Shown here piece by piece: positions 1 through 8,472 of a stretch of 8,472 nucleotides of DNA (position 1 is the first letter of the stretch; each line of letters opens with the position of its first letter). Position numbers and translations under genes: made by a program. The DNA comes from a virus (Duplodnaviria; Heunggongvirae; Uroviricota; Caudoviricetes). A model generated the notes under the pieces. That model did not search any database. It was given only the letters and a program-made list of their open reading frames with translations, and was not told the DNA's origin. Where the stretch lies: the IMG/VR virus record IMGVR_UViG_2711768073_000015. The stretch is one strand, 5' to 3'.

Positions 1-669
1 TTCCTGAATGGCAATATCGCGGGTGTGGGACACAATGGTGTCGATTTCTTCCGGATGAGCAAAGACCATCATATGCCAGTGCACGGTGCCGTCATGGTGA
101 GGCTCCACCGTGCGGATGCCATACCAGCGCAGGCCGTCGCGGTTCAGTTTCTTGCGGACCGCCGCAAAAAACGTGTTAACCAGGTAATCGCTGGAGTCGC
201 GCATGGTGGCCCCGTTCCATTTGGGGTTCGGATGACCGTTCTCCGTTGTTGCGTGGTATTTTGACGGGCAGGTGACAGTCAGAAACACCGCTCTGTCGCC
301 ACGGGCTTCGGCCAGAAGTTCCAGTCCCTTCATGGTGGCCATCATTTCTGCCTTACGGTGAACCGGGTTACTTACTCCCGCGTAATACACTGTCTCGAGA
401 TCAATCGTGAACCCGTCTTCATTTTCCAGCATGAAACTTTTCAGGAAATCGCGTGTTTTCTCGCGCTGTGCGCGAAACTCGCTTAACGCGTCCTGGCTCA
501 GATAGGGTGATGTTTTTCTGGAAACCAGACAGGCGGCGCGGAGTTGTTCTTCTCTCCACTCGCAACGTAACAGCCACAGTTTGCGTTTCCACCATTCCGC
601 ACAGGTCAGGCGAAGGATTGCGCCCGGCAGCAGCTCCGTGTCCGGTTCATTCCTCCGGTCTTTGTCTGT
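1..669. repeat. Direct repeat copy X1 of the gene A core segment (partner 1426..2094; offset 1425 bp)
   Basis: 1..669 aligns to 1426..2094 with a handful of substitutions and no indels (for example 25 matches 1450 and 453 matches 1878 in the ORF track). Homology may continue left of the window edge. Confidence 0.9.
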
Positions 670-2832
670 ATCAACGCCGTCAGGGAGCTGCGGCCACGGT
701 GCTGGCCGTTCTTCCGGCTGTTCTGTCCCGTTGTTGTCCGTTTCCTGTACACGGGGACAGTTATTGCCACGAGTCCAAGGGGCGGCAGGGCCGCCCTGAA
801 GGTCAAAACCATTTTCGCGGGTGCTGTCTTCCGCTTCCGGTTTGCGTCTTACCAGCTTCCAGTTATCCGGATGCGTGCACACACGGGAGGATTCCCCGAT
901 GAGTGGTGACCAGATCCCATAAATCTGTACGCTCTGTTCGCCGTAATCGTTCAGCTCTTCTGCGAGGTCGTAGGCGGTGCGAATCAGGTAGTCTTTGCGT
1001 GGAACAAGCACGCCACCCTGTTTTTCAATGTAGGTGGCAAAACACCCGGCATCAGCGGCAGCGAGTACCGCATCCATTGCGTCATCCTTCAGCCGTTGCG
1101 GGCCTTCCGGGTTGCGTGCCATCTGGCTGGCAAGGCGGCGTAGTTCACGCCACACCTGACGGGAGGGGATGCCAAAGAACTGGAACTGGCGGACCCGGTG
1201 AAGGCGCGCCCAGCCGATGGCGCGCTCCACGCTCTCGGCCATTGATTTTCCGGTTTCGTGGTCAACGCGTGGCTTGCCCGTTTTCGGGTCGATACCATCC
1301 ACGGCGCGGCTGTCCAGGTTCTTTCCGATGTAGGTGGCGATGTAGCTGGTTGGCGTGCCTTTTGAGCCGTCGACATACTCCACCTTAAAGCGCGGAGTAA
1401 TATCATTGCCCAGCTCGTGGCGGTCTTCCTGAATGGCAATATCGCGGGTGTGGGACACAATGGTGTCGATTTCTTCCGGATGAGCAAAGACCATCATATG
1501 CCAGTGCACGGTGCCGTCATGGTGAGGCTCCACCGTGCGGATGCCATACCAGCGCAGGCCGTCGCGGTTCAGTTTCTTGCGGACCGCCGCAAAAAACGTG
1601 TTAACCAGGTAATCGCTGGAGTCGCGCATGGTGGCCCCGTTCCATTTGGGATTCGGATGACCGTTCTCTGTTGTGGCGTGGTATTTTGACGGGCAGGTGA
1701 CAGTCAGAAACACCGCTCTGTCGCCACGGGCTTCGGCCAGAAGTTCCAGCCCCTTCATGGTGGCCATCATTTCTGCCTTACGGTGAATCGGGTTACTTAC
1801 TCCCGCGTAATACACTGTCTCGAGATCAATCGTGAACCCGTCTTCGTTTTCCAGCATGAAACTTTTCAGGAAATCGCGTGTTTTCTCGCGCTGTGCGCGA
1901 AACTCGCTTAACGCGTCCTGGCTCAGATAGGGTGATGTTTTTCTGGAAACCAGACAGGCGGCGCGGAGTTGTTCTTCTCTCCACTCGCAACGTAACAGCC
2001 ACAGTTTGCGTTTCCACCATTCCGCACAGGTCAGGCGAAGGATTGCGCCCGGCAGCAGCTCCGTGTCCGGTTCATTCCTCCGGTCTTTGTCTGTTGTCAG
2101 AGCGTCATAATGTGGAGGCATAGCGTGCAGGTGTAACGCCATGCGGGCCAGCATCTGATACGCCTTCAGCGTTACATCCATGGTCAGCTCGCCATCGGTC
2201 GCGCCAAAGCCATCGCAGAGTTTTTCAAAAGTGCCACTGAACATCGCCGCCGTCATGGTGGCCAGCGTCTGTATCTGGTGTTTGTTGAGCTGCGGCAGGT
2301 AAAGCAAATCGTCCAGGCGTTCGCGTCCGGCAAGGGAGCGATAGCCCGGTGTCAGCCAGCGGCTGTCGGTGCGGTCCAGACGTTCGAATATTTTGCGCAG
2401 GGTTCCGCGCGCGTAGCGTTCAGCCTGCCAGCTCTTTTTGCCTTTCTGACGATCGGCTTCCTGCTTCTTGCGCAGAAAAGAGAGGTGGCGGCTCAGAGGT
2501 TCACGCAGATAAACGGGAAGCACCTTCAGTGTGGCAAAAGCACGGGCCACCGGGTCTTGTTCTGTTGCCTGACGCTTGCTGATGATGCTTTGTGCCAGCT
2601 TTTCACGCTGTCCGGCTTCCTCAAGGGATGCCATGAGTTTTTTACCCACGGTGGATTGTGCGAAAAAGGCTTCTTCCTTCGCTTCCTGTTCTTCCTGTGC
2701 CCTTTTGTTTGCCTCAAGGTAGTAACGGATGGCGCGTTGCAGGTCGGTTTCAGTTTCCTGCCTGCGCTCCGTAAATCTGGCCGGATCAATGGCTGGCCGT
2801 GGTTCATTCCAGCTCCATGCAAACGCACTCAT
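1..2832 (-). CDS. A: Replication initiation endonuclease, P2 gpA family (HUH rolling-circle initiator); partial, runs off the window at its 3' end; contains an in-frame internal repeat
   Basis: Minus-strand frame (codons at 3k+1..3k+3) is open from ATG 2832..2830 to the window edge in every segment I hand-translated (1..420 and 1321..1440); 421..1320 and 1441..2830 were not fully hand-translated, so that stretch is inferred. The ORF track omits it, presumably because no stop lies inside the window. Translation shows TSPYLSQDALSEFRAQREKTRDFLKSFMLENEDG, the HUH motif GIRTVEPHHDGTVHWHMMVF (encoded at 1486..1545 and again at 61..120) and paired tyrosines SYIATYIGK (1321..1347), matching the motif order I recall for P2 protein A. 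Confidence 0.85.
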   Translation of the reverse strand, partial: MSAFAWSWNEPRPAIDPARFTERRQETETDLQRAIRYYLEANKRAQEEQEAKEEAFFAQSTVGKKLMASLEEAGQREKLAQSIISKRQATEQDPVARAFATLKVLPVYLREPLSRHLSFLRKKQEADRQKGKKSWQAERYARGTLRKIFERLDRTDSRWLTPGYRSLAGRERLDDLLYLPQLNKHQIQTLATMTAAMFSGTFEKLCDGFGATDGELTMDVTLKAYQMLARMALHLHAMPPHYDALTTDKDRRNEPDTELLPGAILRLTCAEWWKRKLWLLRCEWREEQLRAACLVSRKTSPYLSQDALSEFRAQREKTRDFLKSFMLENEDGFTIDLETVYYAGVSNPIHRKAEMMATMKGLELLAEARGDRAVFLTVTCPSKYHATTENGHPNPKWNGATMRDSSDYLVNTFFAAVRKKLNRDGLRWYGIRTVEPHHDGTVHWHMMVFAHPEEIDTIVSHTRDIAIQEDRHELGNDITPRFKVEYVDGSKGTPTSYIATYIGKNLDSRAVDGIDPKTGKPRVDHETGKSMAESVERAIGWARLHRVRQFQFFGIPSRQVWRELRRLASQMARNPEGPQRLKDDAMDAVLAAADAGCFATYIEKQGGVLVPRKDYLIRTAYDLAEELNDYGEQSVQIYGIWSPLIGESSRVCTHPDNWKLVRRKPEAEDSTRENGFDLQGGPAAPWTRGNNCPRVQETDNNGTEQPEERPAPWPQLPDGVDTDKDRRNEPDTELLPGAILRLTCAEWWKRKLWLLRCEWREEQLRAACLVSRKTSPYLSQDALSEFRAQREKTRDFLKSFMLENEDGFTIDLETVYYAGVSNPVHRKAEMMATMKGLELLAEARGDRAVFLTVTCPSKYHATTENGHPNPKWNGATMRDSSDYLVNTFFAAVRKKLNRDGLRWYGIRTVEPHHDGTVHWHMMVFAHPEEIDTIVSHTRDIAIQE
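1426..2094. repeat. Direct repeat copy X2 (partner 1..669)
   Basis: Same alignment. Identity ends at 2094/2095, where the two copies continue into different sequence (670.. versus 2095..). Confidence 0.9.
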
Positions 2833-2921
2833 GGCTGGTATCCCGTCACGCGCTGCCACTCCTGTGAGAAGAGGGCGGAAAGGCGGTTAAATTCAGCGGA
2901 GTATTCAATCAGCGAGGCACA
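1799..2921. repeat. Tandem duplication unit, copy 1 (1123 bp)
   Basis: 1799..2921 aligns to 2922..4044 at a constant offset of 1123 with scattered substitutions (for example g2825 versus t3948). The two copies abut directly, head to tail. Confidence 0.9.
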
Positions 2922-3955
2922 ACTCCCGCGTAATACACTGTCTCGAGATCAATCGTGAACCCGTCTTCATTTTCCAGCATGAAACTTTTCAGGAAATCGC
3001 GTGTTTTCTCGCGCTGTGCGCGAAACTCGCTTAACGCGTCCTGGCTCAGATAGGGTGATGTTTTTCTGGAAACCAGACAGGCGGCGCGGAGTTGTTCTTC
3101 TCTCCACTCGCAACGTAACAGCCACAGTTTGCGTTTCCACCATTCCGCACAGGTCAGGCGAAGGATTGCGCCCGGCAGCAGCTCCGTGTCCGGTTCGTTC
3201 CTCCGGTCTTTGTCTGTTGTCAGTGCGTCATAATGTGGAGGCATGGCGTGCAGGTGTAACGCCATGCGGGCCAGCATCTGATACGCCTTCAGCGTTACAT
3301 CCATGGTCAGTTCGCCATCAGTCGCGCCAAAGCCATCGCAGAGTTTTTCGAAGGTGCTGCTGAACATCGCCGCCGTCATGGTGGCCAGCGTCTGTATCTG
3401 GTGTTTGTTGAGCTGCGGCAGGTAAAGCAAATCGTCCAGGCGTTCGCGTCCGGCAAGGGAGCGATAGCCCGGTGTCAGCCAGCGGCTGTCGGTGCGGTCC
3501 AGACGTTCGAATATTTTGCGCAGGGTTCCGCGCGCGTAGCGTTCAGCCTGCCAGCTCTTTTTGCCTTTCTGACGATCGGCTTCCTGCTTCTTGCGCAGAA
3601 AAGAGAGGTGGCGGCTCAGAGGTTCACGCAGATAAACGGGAAGCACCTTCAGTGTGGCAAAAGCACGGGCCACCGGGTCTTGTTCTGTTGCCTGACGCTT
3701 GCTGATGATGCTTTGTGCCAGCTTTTCACGCTGTCCGGCTTCCTCAAGGGATGCCATGAGTTTTTTACCCACGGTGGATTGTGCGAAAAAGGCTTCCTCC
3801 TTCGCTTCCTGTTCTTCCAGAGCCTTTTTGTCTGCCTCAAGGTAGTAACGGATGGCGCGTTGCAGGTCGGTTTCAGTTTCCTGCCTGTGCTCCGTAAATC
3901 TGGCCGGATCAATGGCTGGTCGTGGTTCATTCCAGCTCCATGCAAACTCACTCAT
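2909..3955 (-). pseudogene. Truncated 5' duplicate of replication gene A (348 codons; lacks HUH and Tyr core)
   Basis: ATG at 3955..3953 overlaps the TGA of the upstream ORF (ATGA). Translation MSEFAWSWNEPRPAID... is near-identical to the N-terminus of the copy starting at 2832. The frame breaks 13 nt after the duplication junction (2921/2922) at TGA 2911..2909 because the 1123-bp unit is not a multiple of 3. The ORF track lists it from a GTG at 3982. Confidence 0.6.
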
Positions 3956-4044
3956 GGCTGGTATCCCGTCACGCGCTGCCACTCCTGCAAGAAGATGGTG
4001 GAAAGGCGGTTAAATTCAGCGGTGTATTCACTCAGCGAGGCACA
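2922..4044. repeat. Tandem duplication unit, copy 2 (1123 bp)
   Basis: As above. The segment 2922..3217 is a third copy of 374..669 and 1799..2094. Confidence 0.9.
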
Positions 4045-4868: not shown

Positions 4869-4955
4869 TACGCCTCCTGGGCGTGTGCGAATACCTCCGC
4901 GAATGCGGATTGTTTTTACATTTTCTTATTTAACCTAGGGTTTTTATTTGCGCTG

Positions 4956-5069
4956 TTATTCGCCAGTGAAAAAGCGTTCAATCTTTTTTACTGAATGAAT
5001 AATTTGCATAATCCCAATGGCGCAGACCACCGAAATAATCAGAACAAGCCATGAGATAAATATACTCAT
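4956..5069 (-). CDS. Putative small hydrophobic membrane peptide (37 aa, MSIFISWLVLIISVVCAIGIMQIIHSVKKIERFFTGE)
   Basis: Hand-translated; not in the ORF track (too short). ATG 5069..5067 overlaps the TGA 5068..5066 of the upstream 80-aa ORF; stop TAA at 4958..4956. Residues 3 to 24 are almost entirely hydrophobic, consistent with one transmembrane helix. Confidence 0.4.
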   Translation of the reverse strand: MSIFISWLVLIISVVCAIGIMQIIHSVKKIERFFTGE

Positions 5070-5308
5070 GCAATATTCCCCAGCTTATACGGTTCAATAT
5101 GCTCCCCGCATTCTGCGGCACAGATCAGCTCGGAAAGTTCGTTAAGTGCATCCAGATCATCAGCGTAAAAAGCCACGTCATACAGACTCCGGATTGCCCT
5201 GGTCAATGAGTCACGGGCTGCACGTTCAGCATGAGCACCTGATGCACTTAAGCGAAAATAAAAACGCTCAAGTGCTTTGTTAATGAGAGTTTTATATTCT
5301 TTGCCCAT
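5066..5308 (-). CDS. Hypothetical small phage protein (80 aa)
   Basis: ORF track; ATG 5308..5306; lies 11 nt downstream of the stop of the preceding ORF in the same operon. Confidence 0.55.
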   Translation of the reverse strand: MGKEYKTLINKALERFYFRLSASGAHAERAARDSLTRAIRSLYDVAFYADDLDALNELSELICAAECGEHIEPYKLGNIA

Positions 5309-5319
5309 CGCAACGCCCT

Positions 5320-5598
5320 TTAATCTGCTTTCTGAATTTCAGCTTCTGAATCTATACAAATAATTTCGATATAGGGTTCATCGCCATTAATCTTACGTGC
5401 TTTTTCAGCTTCGCTAATGATTCCGTGTACAGTCTGGTACGGAAGTTCTACGGTCAGGCGCGTGCCGTTCAGATAAACGTAAGTAGCTGCATTTTTTTCT
5501 GATGGGACAACTCCATCAATAGCTGATGCGCGCAATAACAGTTCACCGCGAAAATCAATAAAACGGATAAATACACCTTGTGCATGCTCTTTGGTCAT
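5320..5598 (-). CDS. Hypothetical small phage protein (92 aa; start chosen at internal ATG)
   Basis: ORF track gives 5320..5697, but that N-terminus overlaps the upstream ORF. ATG at 5598..5596 is preceded by AGGTG (complement of 5603..5607) and lies 10 nt after the upstream stop (5611..5609). Confidence 0.5.
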   Translation of the reverse strand: MTKEHAQGVFIRFIDFRGELLLRASAIDGVVPSEKNAATYVYLNGTRLTVELPYQTVHGIISEAEKARKINGDEPYIEIICIDSEAEIQKAD

Positions 5599-6331: not shown

Positions 6332-6643
6332 ATGTCAAGTGGGTACGAAAAAAAACTGAAAGAGATACGGAAAAGTGAAGGGTTAACTCAAGCTGAGTTT
6401 GCTGATGTTACTGGGATAAATCTCGGAACTATAAAGAATTATGAGAGCGGTAAAAGAGAGGTTGGTTTAAGCGTTGTTGATCGCGTAATTAATTCTAAGG
6501 ATTTCGAAAAATACACTATATGGCTTATGACGGGAAAAACAAATGAGGCTGCTGGGCAGATCAGTCCCTCTCTCTCCCCTGATGGGCCAGAAAACACATC
6601 GTCTTCTCAAAAGCCCCGCAAGACTGGTACACAGCCCGGCTAA
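6332..6643 (+). CDS. C: Immunity repressor, P2 C-like (helix-turn-helix)
   Basis: ORF track (103 aa). The segments LTQAEFADVTGINLGTIKNYESGKRE and FEKYTIWLMTGKTNEAAGQISPSLSPDG closely parallel the P2 C repressor as I recall it. Positioned immediately upstream of int on the same strand, as in P2. Confidence 0.8.
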   Translation: MSSGYEKKLKEIRKSEGLTQAEFADVTGINLGTIKNYESGKREVGLSVVDRVINSKDFEKYTIWLMTGKTNEAAGQISPSLSPDGPENTSSSQKPRKTGTQPG

Positions 6644-6692: not shown

Positions 6693-7670
6693 ATGAGCAT
6701 AAAATCAATTCCGGGAGGGTATCTTCTTGACATGCGCCCTGAGGGGCGTAAAGGCAAACGCATTCGCAAAAAATTTAAAACGAAATCGGATGCAGTTTTA
6801 TATGAGCGGTGGGTGCTGGCGCAACAGCATAACAATGAGTGGAAAGGAAACTCTATTGATCGCCGTCCTCTGTCAGTGCTTATTGACTTGTGGTGGAAAT
6901 ACCACGGCCAGCTAATGAAGTCAGGGCATAACACGCGCCTTAAATTGCTGCGCTTGAGTGAAGCAATGGATGACCCGTGCGTGCATAAACTTAATACAAC
7001 GATGCTCACCGAGCTACGTGTGTCCAGGATAGAGCAGGGGATACAGCCCAGCACCATAAATCGAGAGATTGGGGCGTTAAGCGCGATGTTTACCGCACTC
7101 ATCTCATCCGGCCATTTTCTTAACGATAACCCCGTTCAAGGCCTTAAAGGAATGAAGGTTAACGAGCGCGAAATGGGATATCTGAGTAAGTCTGAATGTG
7201 TTCAGTTGCTGGATGCACTGGCTGAAAATCCCGATGAACGACTGGCTGTCGAAATCCTTCTGTCGACCGGGGCGCGATGGGGCGAGGTAGCGGCACTGGA
7301 GCAGCGCCGTGTTCTTCATTGTCGAATCACTTTTTCAAAAACGAAGAACAGCAAAAACCGTACCGTTCCTATTTCTGAAAGCCTGTTTGAAAAGATCAAA
7401 AAACGGGGCGGGAAACTGGTGTTTCCGACGCTGGATTATTCATTGGTTCGCGATGTCATCAAAACGGTCGCACCTGATGTTCCTGACGGCCAGGCTGTTC
7501 ATGCGCTGCGCCACACCTTCGCCAGTCATTTCATGATGAACGGCGGCAATATTCTGACGCTCCAGAAAATTCTGGGGCACGCAAAGATTCAGACAACGAT
7601 GATTTATGCCCATCTTGCGCCGGATTACCTGCAGGATGCGGTGAGGTTTAATCCACTAGGAGGTGCTTAA
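6693..7670 (+). CDS. int: Tyrosine recombinase / phage integrase (325 aa), P2 Int-like
   Basis: ORF track frame 6543..7670. I place the start at ATG 6693 (MSIKSIPGGYLLDMRPEGRKGKRIRKKF...) because the 6543 start would overlap the repressor gene. C-terminal catalytic signature HALRHTFASHFMMNGGNILTLQKILGHAKIQTTMIYAHL (HxxR ... Y). Stop TAA at 7668..7670. Confidence 0.9.
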   Translation: MSIKSIPGGYLLDMRPEGRKGKRIRKKFKTKSDAVLYERWVLAQQHNNEWKGNSIDRRPLSVLIDLWWKYHGQLMKSGHNTRLKLLRLSEAMDDPCVHKLNTTMLTELRVSRIEQGIQPSTINREIGALSAMFTALISSGHFLNDNPVQGLKGMKVNEREMGYLSKSECVQLLDALAENPDERLAVEILLSTGARWGEVAALEQRRVLHCRITFSKTKNSKNRTVPISESLFEKIKKRGGKLVFPTLDYSLVRDVIKTVAPDVPDGQAVHALRHTFASHFMMNGGNILTLQKILGHAKIQTTMIYAHLAPDYLQDAVRFNPLGGA

Positions 7671-7672
7671 GA

Positions 7673-8035
7673 GTGAAGTTTCATTTAGATGAACTTAAAA
7701 GAATGGCAACGCTCGATAATTTTGCGCGTTTTCTCAATGAGTCGTCTACGAATGAAAAATGTTTGTCGTGTGGCGATACGGATATGTACATGTATTTGAC
7801 GAATATTGTTGAGGTGGGGCCTGAGCCGAAAACTGCTGAGGAGTGTGATTTAGGCACTTTTGTTATGCTTGATTACATCGGTCCATTTACTGGGTATCCG
7901 GGATATGAGGGACATGATCGGGAAAATATCCATAACTATGAATTCCGACTTACCTGTAACAGATGTGGGTTTGTTCATCGTTACTCGGCCCGGGCCTTTA
8001 TGAACTGGGTAGGCAAGCAGGGTGATGAGAAGTGA
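7673..8035 (+). CDS. Hypothetical protein with two CxxC pairs (putative zinc-binding), 120 aa; translationally coupled to int
   Basis: GTG start at 7673, 2 nt after the int stop, with AGGAGG at 7658..7663 (9-nt spacer) inside the int 3' end. Motifs CLSCGD and CNRCGF. Stop TGA 8033..8035. Confidence 0.6.
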   Translation: MKFHLDELKRMATLDNFARFLNESSTNEKCLSCGDTDMYMYLTNIVEVGPEPKTAEECDLGTFVMLDYIGPFTGYPGYEGHDRENIHNYEFRLTCNRCGFVHRYSARAFMNWVGKQGDEK

Positions 8036-8472
8036 TGGCAGAGAATGTTGCACATATTTCGCGGTTCAGAAAAAAGAAAGAGAATGCCTATAATGTATCC
8101 AACAACCAAGTAACAGGAAGTGGTAATGATGGAGGTGATGGCATGAATGACGACCTTGAACGGCGGGTCAGTTGCCTGGAAAGTGATGTGACTGAAATCA
8201 AAAACAACCTGATTACTCTCACCACAAGAAGCGAATCCTTTGCTACCAAATCTGATGTACTGGAGATTCGCGAAGGGTTGAGGCTTGAGATGGCAGAATC
8301 GCGCCAATCCCTGAAGTCTGAGATGGCTGATTTACGCCAGTCTCTGAAAGTTGAGATGGCTGAGCATCGTACTGAACTTCAGAAATCATTTGCAAATCAG
8401 ACTTGGTTACTCACAGGTATTGTCCTGTCTGCGATGGCCGTGCTTGTGGCTGTGGTTACTGTTATTAAGTAA
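8035..8472 (+). CDS. Tail-anchored coiled-coil membrane protein (C-terminal TM helix); start ambiguous (8035 or 8143)
   Basis: ATG 8035 overlaps the upstream TGA (TGATG). An alternative ATG at 8143 has a strong GGAGGTG at 8131..8137 with a 5-nt spacer. Three 11-residue repeats EMAESRQSLKS / EMADLRQSLKV / EMAEHRTELQK precede a hydrophobic C-terminus WLLTGIVLSAMAVLVAVVTVIK (about 8404..8469). Stop TAA 8470..8472 is the last codon of the window. Confidence 0.65.
   Translation: MAENVAHISRFRKKKENAYNVSNNQVTGSGNDGGDGMNDDLERRVSCLESDVTEIKNNLITLTTRSESFATKSDVLEIREGLRLEMAESRQSLKSEMADLRQSLKVEMAEHRTELQKSFANQTWLLTGIVLSAMAVLVAVVTVIK
8287..8385 (+). repeat. Three imperfect 33-bp tandem coding repeats
   Basis: gagatggcagaatcgcgccaatccctgaagtct / gagatggctgatttacgccagtctctgaaagtt / gagatggctgagcatcgtactgaacttcagaaa, encoding the 11-residue coiled-coil repeats of the last gene. 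Confidence 0.8.

Follow-up and report, generated by a model that had tools for sequence, protein, structure and literature searches.

An overlapping gene pair between int and the att core of a P2-like prophage is one allele of a conserved family of accessory cargo

Lambda rexA/rexB and gp30/gp31 of mycobacteriophage Sbash are two-gene exclusion modules that are expressed together with the phage repressor. Here we describe an overlapping gene pair, named g1 and g2, carried on a stretch of 8,472 nucleotides (nt) from a phage of the class Caudoviricetes (IMG/VR record IMGVR_UViG_2711768073_000015), the whole of which is referred to as the window; the pair lies directly behind the integrase gene int of a P2-like prophage. 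In P2 itself the Pc promoter drives the repressor C and the integrase (PMC3936717). The int-att and the cI-int intervals of P2-related phages are reported as hotspots of defence genes and other cargo (PMC13586616; PMC9122126; bioRxiv 2024.10.15.618418), and in P2-like phages a 'third hotspot' is placed between a tail protein and CI (bioRxiv 2024.10.15.618418). Our analyses identified the pair, with very high confidence, as accessory P2-like cargo at the ihfA-btuC attB site: the cassette extends from the last int codons to an attP arm of about 110 base pairs (bp) and is one allele of a family of conserved gene pairs residing in the lysogeny region of P2-like prophages of Enterobacterales and Aeromonas. 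The genes concerned are the following.

6332-6643, plus strand: immunity repressor of C type (HTH_3), with which the lysogeny operon begins; Pfam HTH_3 E=2e-10; RefSeq label helix-turn-helix domain-containing protein.
6693-7670, plus strand: P2-type tyrosine integrase, 325 amino acids (aa); Pfam Int_N 1.5e-28 and Phage_integrase 1e-19; RefSeq label 'phage integrase'.
7673-8035, plus strand: g1, 120 aa, GTG start and TGA stop (8033-8035); predicted cytoplasmic four-Cys (zinc-ribbon-type) protein, PHROG 4293.
8035-8472, plus strand: g2, long form, 145 aa, ATG at 8035 and TAA at 8470-8472; DUF1640-like, phrog_9415 at E=1e-42.

Direct reading of the sequence placed an AGGAGG at 7658-7663, the int stop codon TAA at 7668-7670 and the g1 start at 7673, leaving a spacer of 2 nt, and showed that the g1 TGA and the g2 ATG overlap as TGATG with the A in common; both junctions had been called in the same way by a previous sequence-only reading of the window. 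A second in-frame start option for g2 is a GTG at 8032, and the g2 stop codon ends on the final base of the window. Window positions 7000-8472 are identical to E. coli SE11, whose RefSeq annotation holds exactly two coding sequences for the pair, WP_000668483.1 and WP_000829983.1, both labelled hypothetical proteins. The many conserved homologues of both genes exclude that these open reading frames (ORFs) arose by chance, and an Rfam search of the window returned no RNA family. The C-int lysogeny operon appears to be lengthened by the pair.

The position of the pair with respect to the prophage ends was read from SE11. There a complete P2-like prophage, with genes for terminase, portal, capsid, tail and lysis as well as ogr, A, C and int, is inserted between btuC and ihfA and bounded by a 25-bp direct repeat, AAAGAAAAAAGGCCGCAGAGCGGCC, the att core; the pair is found at one of its ends. 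The core occurs 125 bp past the g2 stop, i.e. outside the window (L001:12999-13023). K-12 carries the core once, in an otherwise empty 100-bp btuC-ihfA spacer, and its two flanks match both SE11 junctions exactly. The pair is therefore enclosed by int and the att core within the prophage, as expected from the earlier proposal that it is phage cargo, and the K-12 attB is devoid of it. A prophage boundary placed right after int, which would have made g1 and g2 host genes, was ruled out by the core beyond g2 and by the empty K-12 site.

The survey of 5426 complete E. coli genomes detected int in 302 of them, nearly all at 95% identity or more, and five types of cargo behind it, which together account for 300 of the 302.

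SE11 type: g1 of 120 aa and g2 of 145 aa; 86 E. coli genomes.
O157:H7 FRIK2069 type: a 166-aa protein and a 'DUF1640' protein; 23 E. coli genomes.
F344 type: proteins of 127 aa and 99 aa; 19 E. coli genomes.
06-00048 type: an unannotated 135-aa ORF and a 'DUF1640' protein; 14 E. coli genomes.
O104:H4 type: one unrelated gene of 131 aa; 158 E. coli genomes.
Left boundary of the cassette, 7655-7672, plus strand: the final ~5 codons of int, the AGGAGG for g1, the stop of int and the 2-nt spacer.

The five types share int up to TTTAATCC (window position ~7654) and diverge after it; homology to other genomes ends within the last few int codons (about 7654-7669) and restarts in the conserved attP arm of ~110 bp, which begins with ATGATCCACAAAGTGACCACATCC and runs through to the core. 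The variable int-proximal cargo that the sequence-only reading had proposed to look for in related prophages was thus found, between conserved flanks. The pair occurs in only 86 of the genomes, always complete and in single copy; together with its three divergent versions (56 genomes) it fills the site in 142 of about 300. The 131-aa gene (L005:4486-4881 in O104:H4 2011C-3493), the commonest cargo at this hotspot and present in the 2011 outbreak strain, had no Pfam or PADLOC match. In strain 06-00048 the g1-like ORF (L006:4471-4878) lacks a RefSeq annotation, the next gene occupying 4879-5409, and RefSeq begins the 'DUF1640' genes at an internal Met (L006:4879-5409; L007:4965-5519); coupling to the upstream gene and the N-terminal peptide are therefore hidden in these records.

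The same two-gene arrangement was recognized well beyond E. coli. In 13 of 14 genomic contexts, covering Escherichia, Salmonella, Klebsiella, Serratia, Providencia, Yersinia, Dickeya, Aeromonas and Citrobacter with g1 identities down to about 20%, a coiled-coil membrane protein is encoded behind g1, the stop of the first gene and the start of the second usually overlapping and the genes otherwise being adjacent; the odd one is a g1 copy, possibly truncated, next to a hok-ogr prophage end. The pair follows int in the Escherichia, Salmonella, Klebsiella, Serratia and Providencia loci and on contig L013, and sits between repressor and int in Yersinia, Dickeya and Aeromonas; in L043 it directly overlaps a repressor gene with no int nearby, and in L013 and L038 it overlaps int. 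In prophage contexts it is always on the C/int strand. The location between repressor and int, or just after the repressor, in other genera strengthens the tie to the lysogeny operon. Two contexts are not P2-like, namely a 48-kb Klebsiella phage and a Citrobacter island. A scan of viral genomes returned only close relatives, and the genome scan only 2 loci. Judged from this conservation, the pair is one allele of a widespread two-gene family and not one-off cargo, a point that the sequence-only reading had missed.

A gene of ~270-290 aa precedes g1 in Serratia, Aeromonas and Citrobacter. It was considered as a third component and discarded, since the three proteins are mutually non-homologous and are therefore extra cargo. 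Two cI-int hotspots, of Aeromonas (L012:3188-3991) and Dickeya (L039:3285-3896), hold ahead of the pair a protein for which a match to Flk_N had been precomputed, weak in the Aeromonas locus; hmmscan of these two upstream proteins recovered Flk_N for neither.

Transcription signals were searched by consensus scans. Neither a promoter-like site 5' of g1 nor any terminator-like or promoter-like site separating int from g1 was found by this means. The att core is the terminator hairpin of ihfA and, read along the C-int-g1-g2 direction, consists of GGCCGCTCTGCGGCC followed by TTTTTTCTTT; it is the first and only convincing terminator-like site after the operon, the two weak matches between C and the hairpin both being within ORFs, one in int and one in g2. 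Since int and g1 are separated by no such signal and the first good terminator is the att hairpin, read-through from Pc into the pair is plausible, and g1 and g2 would then belong to the C-int operon. Integration restores the ihfA terminator on one side of the prophage; on the other side, right ahead of btuC, the core gives the putative C-int-cargo transcript a terminator.

The g1 product was characterized by motif, profile and structure analyses. Its sequence contains two CxxC motifs, as first reported, and the four Cys (C30, C33, C95 and C98) are invariant in the 150-sequence family alignment.

7760-7771, plus strand: first CxxC knuckle, C30-C33 (CLSCG), invariant in both family alignments (A4, A8).
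7955-7966, plus strand: second CxxC knuckle, C95-C98 (CNRCG), invariant in both family alignments (A4, A8).

A Kyte-Doolittle scan of g1 returned no strongly hydrophobic stretch, and the protein is predicted to be soluble and, by motif, metal-binding. The AlphaFold2 model obtained from the 150-sequence alignment (predicted local distance difference test, pLDDT, 88.6; predicted template modelling score, pTM, 0.77) consists of two N-terminal helices, a small sheet bearing both knuckles and a long C-terminal helix; the second knuckle is located at the turn between strands 89-95 and 101-105, and the insert at residues 40-60 is the least confident region. A search of the model against PDB structures returned no significant structural neighbour, so that the fold is confidently predicted and, as modelled, unmatched in the PDB. 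The suggestion that g1 might bind nucleic acids received no indication from this confident but neighbourless model, and no DNA-binding family was matched in Pfam.

A profile search of 1.84 billion cluster representatives retrieved 262 g1 relatives at E<=1e-3 and 66 at E<=1e-10, all of 49-180 aa; none of those looked up is named. Members with a named source belong to Escherichia, Salmonella, Klebsiella, Citrobacter, Serratia, Dickeya, Yersinia, Morganella, Rahnella, Photorhabdus and Aeromonas, and the genome scan added a Providencia member. In PHROGs, g1 falls in phrog_4293, to which no function is assigned. In four of the five cargo types the first genes, mutually only 20-30% identical, have in common the motifs (V/I)TPxxFxxFL, CxxCG and Y.Y...CxNCG[FYH], the last two separated by a variable insert, and a C-terminal helix that bears an invariant Trp. 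On the basis of these profile matches, g1 is the founder of an unnamed family of Enterobacterales and Aeromonas.

The second protein, g2, begins with a variable N-terminal peptide (~30 aa); next come a Gly/Asp-rich linker whose last residue is a conserved Met, a coiled coil that opens with L-E-R-R-V-x-x-L-E-x-D and continues with 11-residue repeats, and a terminal anchor. Its main features are listed below.

8239-8256, plus strand: F-A-T-K-S-D beta-layer motif (F69-D74), 33-34 residues after the linker Met throughout the family.
8285-8363, plus strand: 33-nt tandem repeat, 2.4 copies, encoding the 11-residue coil repeats (Tandem Repeats Finder, TRF, and repeat search).
8410-8466, plus strand: predicted C-terminal transmembrane anchor, residues 126-144; best 19-aa Kyte-Doolittle window 2.65, followed only by Lys and the stop.

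The hydrophobic segment (126-144/145) is the only one in g2 and lies at its extreme C-terminus, and profile searches returned weak matches of coiled-coil type, in agreement with the tail-anchored coiled-coil membrane protein originally described. Coil and C-terminal anchor are common to nearly all homologues inspected, and g2 is predicted to be anchored in the membrane and to face the cytoplasm. The pattern [aliphatic]-A-T-K-[polar]-[D/E] is the beta-layer motif of DUF1640 membrane proteins, and beta-layers have been described in trimeric coiled coils (PMC4786415). The best PDB profile match of g2, 6h9l_A (E=0.0015), belongs to a three-chain entry with repeated ATKEDIE units; this weak match and the beta-layer motif indicate that g2 is probably trimeric.

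Assignment of g2 to DUF1640 was evaluated against PF07798. SE11 g2 scored 10.9 bits, far under the Pfam gathering threshold of 33.5, two sister alleles reached E=6.7e-6, and sister alleles or homologues are called DUF1640 or CCDC90 by NCBI, several with a precomputed PF07798 hit. By these profile scores g2 is filed as DUF1640-like rather than as a proven member. The profile and structure searches advised by the sequence-only reading gave, for g2, the DUF1640-like matches and the 6h9l match, and returned no PDB neighbour for the g1 model. In PHROGs, g2 belongs to phrog_9415, with no function assigned. A tblastn search of g2 against phage genomes gave no match, for which the low-complexity filter may be responsible.

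The lengths of g2 homologues rise in steps of 11 aa (87/98/109, 123/134/145/156 and 170/181/192), matching a variable copy number of the 33-nt repeat, and the length of the coiled-coil stalk accordingly differs between alleles in 11-residue steps. The Dickeya allele contains many ATKADLQ-type units.

The start of g2 is ambiguous, many database entries beginning at an internal ATG. Two features are relevant in this respect.

8131-8145, plus strand: internal GGAGG (8131-8135) and in-frame ATG at 8143, candidate start of a 109-aa isoform with coil and anchor.
8065-8094, plus strand: promoter-like site TTCAGA-18-TATAAT (10/12 in the consensus scan), within the coding sequence of the g2 N-terminal peptide; low confidence.

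Of 9 divergent g2 genes with the Gly linker, 8 have a GGAGG, spelt by Gly codons, just 5' of the conserved in-frame ATG, the ninth having GGAG in its place, and the 109-aa form is annotated in many database records (P0256, on about 1000 contigs). The promoter-like site is 48 nt upstream of the internal ATG; a TATAAT is found at the same distance in the distant relative L013 and is absent from the other subtypes. The conserved internal start suggests a candidate second, shorter isoform of g2. The long form is probably also made, since the N-terminal peptide is conserved between distant alleles of the same g1 subtype.

Comparison of the alleles showed a mosaic pattern. FRIK2069 and 06-00048 are 30% identical in g1 and 98% in the g2 coil and anchor, and SE11 and Salmonella OFT38 are 71% identical in g1, 55% in the N-terminal peptide and 36% in the coil. 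These values fit mosaic alleles putatively generated by recombination with breakpoints in the linker and in the RSESFATKSD segment, which is conserved, and suggest that g1 and the g2 N-terminal peptide may be inherited together. The ratio of non-synonymous to synonymous substitution rates (dN/dS) against SE11 was 0-0.10 for int and 0.13-1.03 for g1, the latter from very few changes; in the most divergent close pair it was 0.31 for g1 and 0.05 for int. Thus g1 evolves faster than int.

Some features of the surroundings deserve a mention. At the opposite prophage end, a Hok/Gef toxin gene occurs between ogr and the att core (SE11 L004:36105-36245; also L041:1087-1233); small accessory genes are therefore found on both attP sides in this phage lineage. 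The classical old/tin hotspot of SE11, between the portal gene and A (L001:2817-5324), contains three hypothetical genes of 458, 114 and 263 aa in a very AT-rich stretch (about 31% guanine plus cytosine, GC). On the SE11 locus L001 the GC content is 43-45% for the pair, 48-51% for int and 55-59% for gene A; the pair is AT-richer than gene A, as had been remarked, but the early genes adjoining it are as AT-rich. Gene A itself (minus strand, window 1-4044) contains nested tandem duplications: segments 1799-2921 and 2922-4044 are 1123-bp copies with 97.9% identity, and window 1-669 repeats 1426-2094 at 99.1%. SE11 A residues 3-339, 9-718 and 237-463 occur in series in the window, and a frameshift breaks the first copy. 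The best-matching genomes span only 6679 bp in comparison with the 8472-bp window and thus lack the duplication, which represents either a misassembly or an unusual rearrangement.

As to the function of the pair, the proposal that we tentatively put first, while considering it somewhat less than even in likelihood, is a lysogen-expressed exclusion or abortive-infection module, in which specificity would reside in g1, with g2 acting as scaffold or effector at the membrane; it is drawn from context and evolutionary pattern only. According to this model, read-through from Pc would carry transcription in the lysogen across C, int, g1 and g2 as far as the att-core hairpin, and the pair would exclude, or abort infection by, other phages as a two-component module. 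The g2 protein, a tail-anchored and probably trimeric coiled coil, would serve as scaffold or effector at the inner membrane, on its cytoplasmic face, and g1, with its hypervariable insert between the zinc knuckles, as cytoplasmic four-Cys specificity or sensor subunit. Docking of g1 on g2, possibly on the N-terminal peptide, is envisaged, and the shorter isoform made from the internal GGAGG and ATG may modulate activity. Infection would shift the state of g1/g2, compromising the membrane or else a membrane-proximal step of the invader. Both the physical interaction of g1 and g2 and an action against other mobile elements are inferred. Specific docking of g1 on the N-terminal peptide did not stand as a finding, there being no preferential covariation and only two mosaic cases in its favour, and is kept as a hypothesis.

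Several results weigh against this proposal. Searches of PADLOC-DB 2.0, Pfam and NCBIfam returned no defence, toxin or lysis family for the pair or its sister alleles; the PADLOC matches were only coiled-coil or compositional, a sister allele matching the coil regions of ZorA/LmuB at E>=2e-5, with none for g1. The PDB search of g1 gave no structural neighbour pointing to sensing or nucleic-acid binding, and a single-pass tail anchor is not an obvious pore. The hotspot position is guilt by association, and one report locates only 3% of recognised P2 defence systems at int-att (PMC13586616). In a Mantel test on 13 pairs, covariation of g1 with the N-terminal peptide (r=0.21, p=0.06) was not above that with the coil (r=0.31, p=0.007). 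Positive selection on g1 was not demonstrated, dN/dS being at most about 1 from few substitutions. A more ambitious version of the exclusion proposal, which we regard as doubtful, is a new class of immunity in the lysogeny operon, where a zinc sensor with a fold unseen among solved structures would control a trimeric tail-anchored alpha/beta coil effector with two isoforms, its specificity being reshuffled by cassette and sub-gene recombination across P2-like prophages of many genera.

The host proteins ElaB, YqjD and YgaM are C-tail-anchored coiled-coil proteins that tether cytoplasmic complexes to the inner membrane under stress, and g2 has the same architecture of cytoplasmic coil and extreme C-terminal anchor. 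The pair could accordingly be a lysogenic-conversion factor acting on host physiology, with g2 as a membrane tether under stress and g1 as its client or adaptor, to the benefit of the lysogen; its accessory nature, its probable expression in the lysogen and the lack of a match to any defence family agree with such a role. We nevertheless consider it rather unlikely: g2 matched neither DUF883 nor ElaB in Pfam, such extreme diversification and mosaicism among alleles is more often seen in conflict genes than in stress factors of a housekeeping-like kind, and the pair is almost confined to prophage lysogeny modules.

The link of the pair to C and/or int in the prophage contexts examined, often with translational coupling (to int in L013 and L038, to the repressor in L043), and the small size of g1, by motif a zinc protein like the phage regulators of the Ogr/Delta type, might instead point to a regulator internal to the phage, controlling integration or excision, repressor level or induction, for instance by an anti-sigma-like sequestration at the membrane. 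This explanation is weakened by the 158 genomes whose phages combine a 99%-identical int and the same att with one unrelated gene in place of the pair, showing that the pair is dispensable for integration and lysogeny. Moreover, g1 matched neither Ogr_Delta nor any DNA-binding family in Pfam (with PF04606 there was no match at E<=1, and the prophage's own ogr sits at its other end), and the pair also occurs away from int, in the Klebsiella phage of another type and in the Citrobacter island. A regulatory role is thus unlikely on present data.

A tightly coupled two-gene unit including a membrane protein would also be compatible with a toxin-antitoxin or addiction module, in which the g2 membrane toxin would be restrained by g1 or by its own long isoform and the prophage thereby stabilised, and the Hok/Gef gene across the same att site (also in L041) indicates that such modules collect at this phage end. 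This is improbable, as neither protein matches a known toxin or antitoxin family and g2, with 100-235 aa and a long coil, is unlike small membrane toxins; the order g1 before g2 recalls the antitoxin in many type II systems, and nothing else speaks for it. Finally, a lysis-timing accessory of lytic growth, with an XhlA-like or holin-like g2 giving effector and inhibitor isoforms from its dual start, is highly improbable: the internal GGAGG and ATG are conserved and one sister allele weakly resembles XhlA (E=0.0024, below threshold), whose relatives consist of a coiled coil and a C-terminal anchor, but SE11 g2 has no match to XhlA (PF10779), the pair is in the lysogeny operon far from the lysis cassette and replaceable by unrelated cargo, and lysis functions, namely holin, endolysin and an Rz1-like LysC gene, are already present in the prophage.

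Cargo at an int-att hotspot is what a specialist would anticipate; the wide spread of the family, the g1 fold without PDB match, the probably trimeric DUF1640-like anchor and the conserved internal start nevertheless recommend the pair as a clean and inexpensive object for experiments. P2-like prophages are among the commonest prophages of E. coli, and their hotspots have repeatedly yielded new anti-phage systems; the pair and its sister alleles fill about half of one hotspot behind one integrase type and recur in at least 12 genera. Being small (800 bp), cleanly delimited and easily cloned, the pair makes the exclusion hypothesis directly testable. The g1 protein offers a confident new predicted zinc-binding fold, and g2 a bacterial handle on the poorly understood DUF1640/CCDC90 family. 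Should the pair not be a defence system, it would represent an unrecognised lysogenic-conversion function in pathogenic lineages (O157:H7, O145 and enterotoxigenic E. coli, ETEC).

Among described systems, rexA/rexB and Sbash gp30/gp31 resemble the pair as two-gene units that combine one cytoplasmic and one membrane protein within the lysogeny transcription unit, of which g1 and g2 are putative members. The comparison with rexAB made in the sequence-only reading thus holds for position and does not extend to sequence: unlike the polytopic RexB and gp31, g2 is a coiled coil with a single-pass tail anchor, no sequence relationship exists, and Pfam returned no RexA/RexB match for the pair. With DUF1640/CCDC90-like proteins (PF07798, including the mitochondrial MCUR1/CCDC90B), g2 has in common the beta-layer motif x-A-T-K-x-D where the stalk begins, a hendecad-rich coil and the C-terminal anchor, but it has the variable peptide, Gly linker and 'LERRVxxLExD' coil instead of their canonical N-terminal head. 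The two CxxC knuckles on beta-hairpins recall, for g1, the zinc-ribbon proteins of TFIIS/Rpb9 type and, in a small phage protein, the P2 Ogr/Delta activators. Lambda S105/S107 is a holin/antiholin gene with dual start, and the two in-frame starts of g2 could likewise yield isoforms with or without an N-terminal extension; the g2 starts are 36 codons apart in comparison with 2 in lambda S, g2 is not in a lysis cassette, and its isoforms are hypothetical.

The hotspot is already published and the gene pair is new, having no name, no Pfam model for g1 and no match to a catalogued defence system; a full-text literature search with the RefSeq accessions of g1 and g2 returned no paper. The hotspot papers define the loci and the recognised systems, and in their available portions the pair was not found mentioned (PMC13586616; bioRxiv 2024.10.15.618418; PMC9122126). 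The int-att hotspot of P2-like phages (PMC13586616, 2026) corresponds to the position of the pair described here, inside the element and with alternative cargo between conserved flanks, and the cI-int hotspot of K139/PhiO18P-like phages (PMC9122126, Fig. 7A) is the interval that the pair occupies in Yersinia, Dickeya and Aeromonas.

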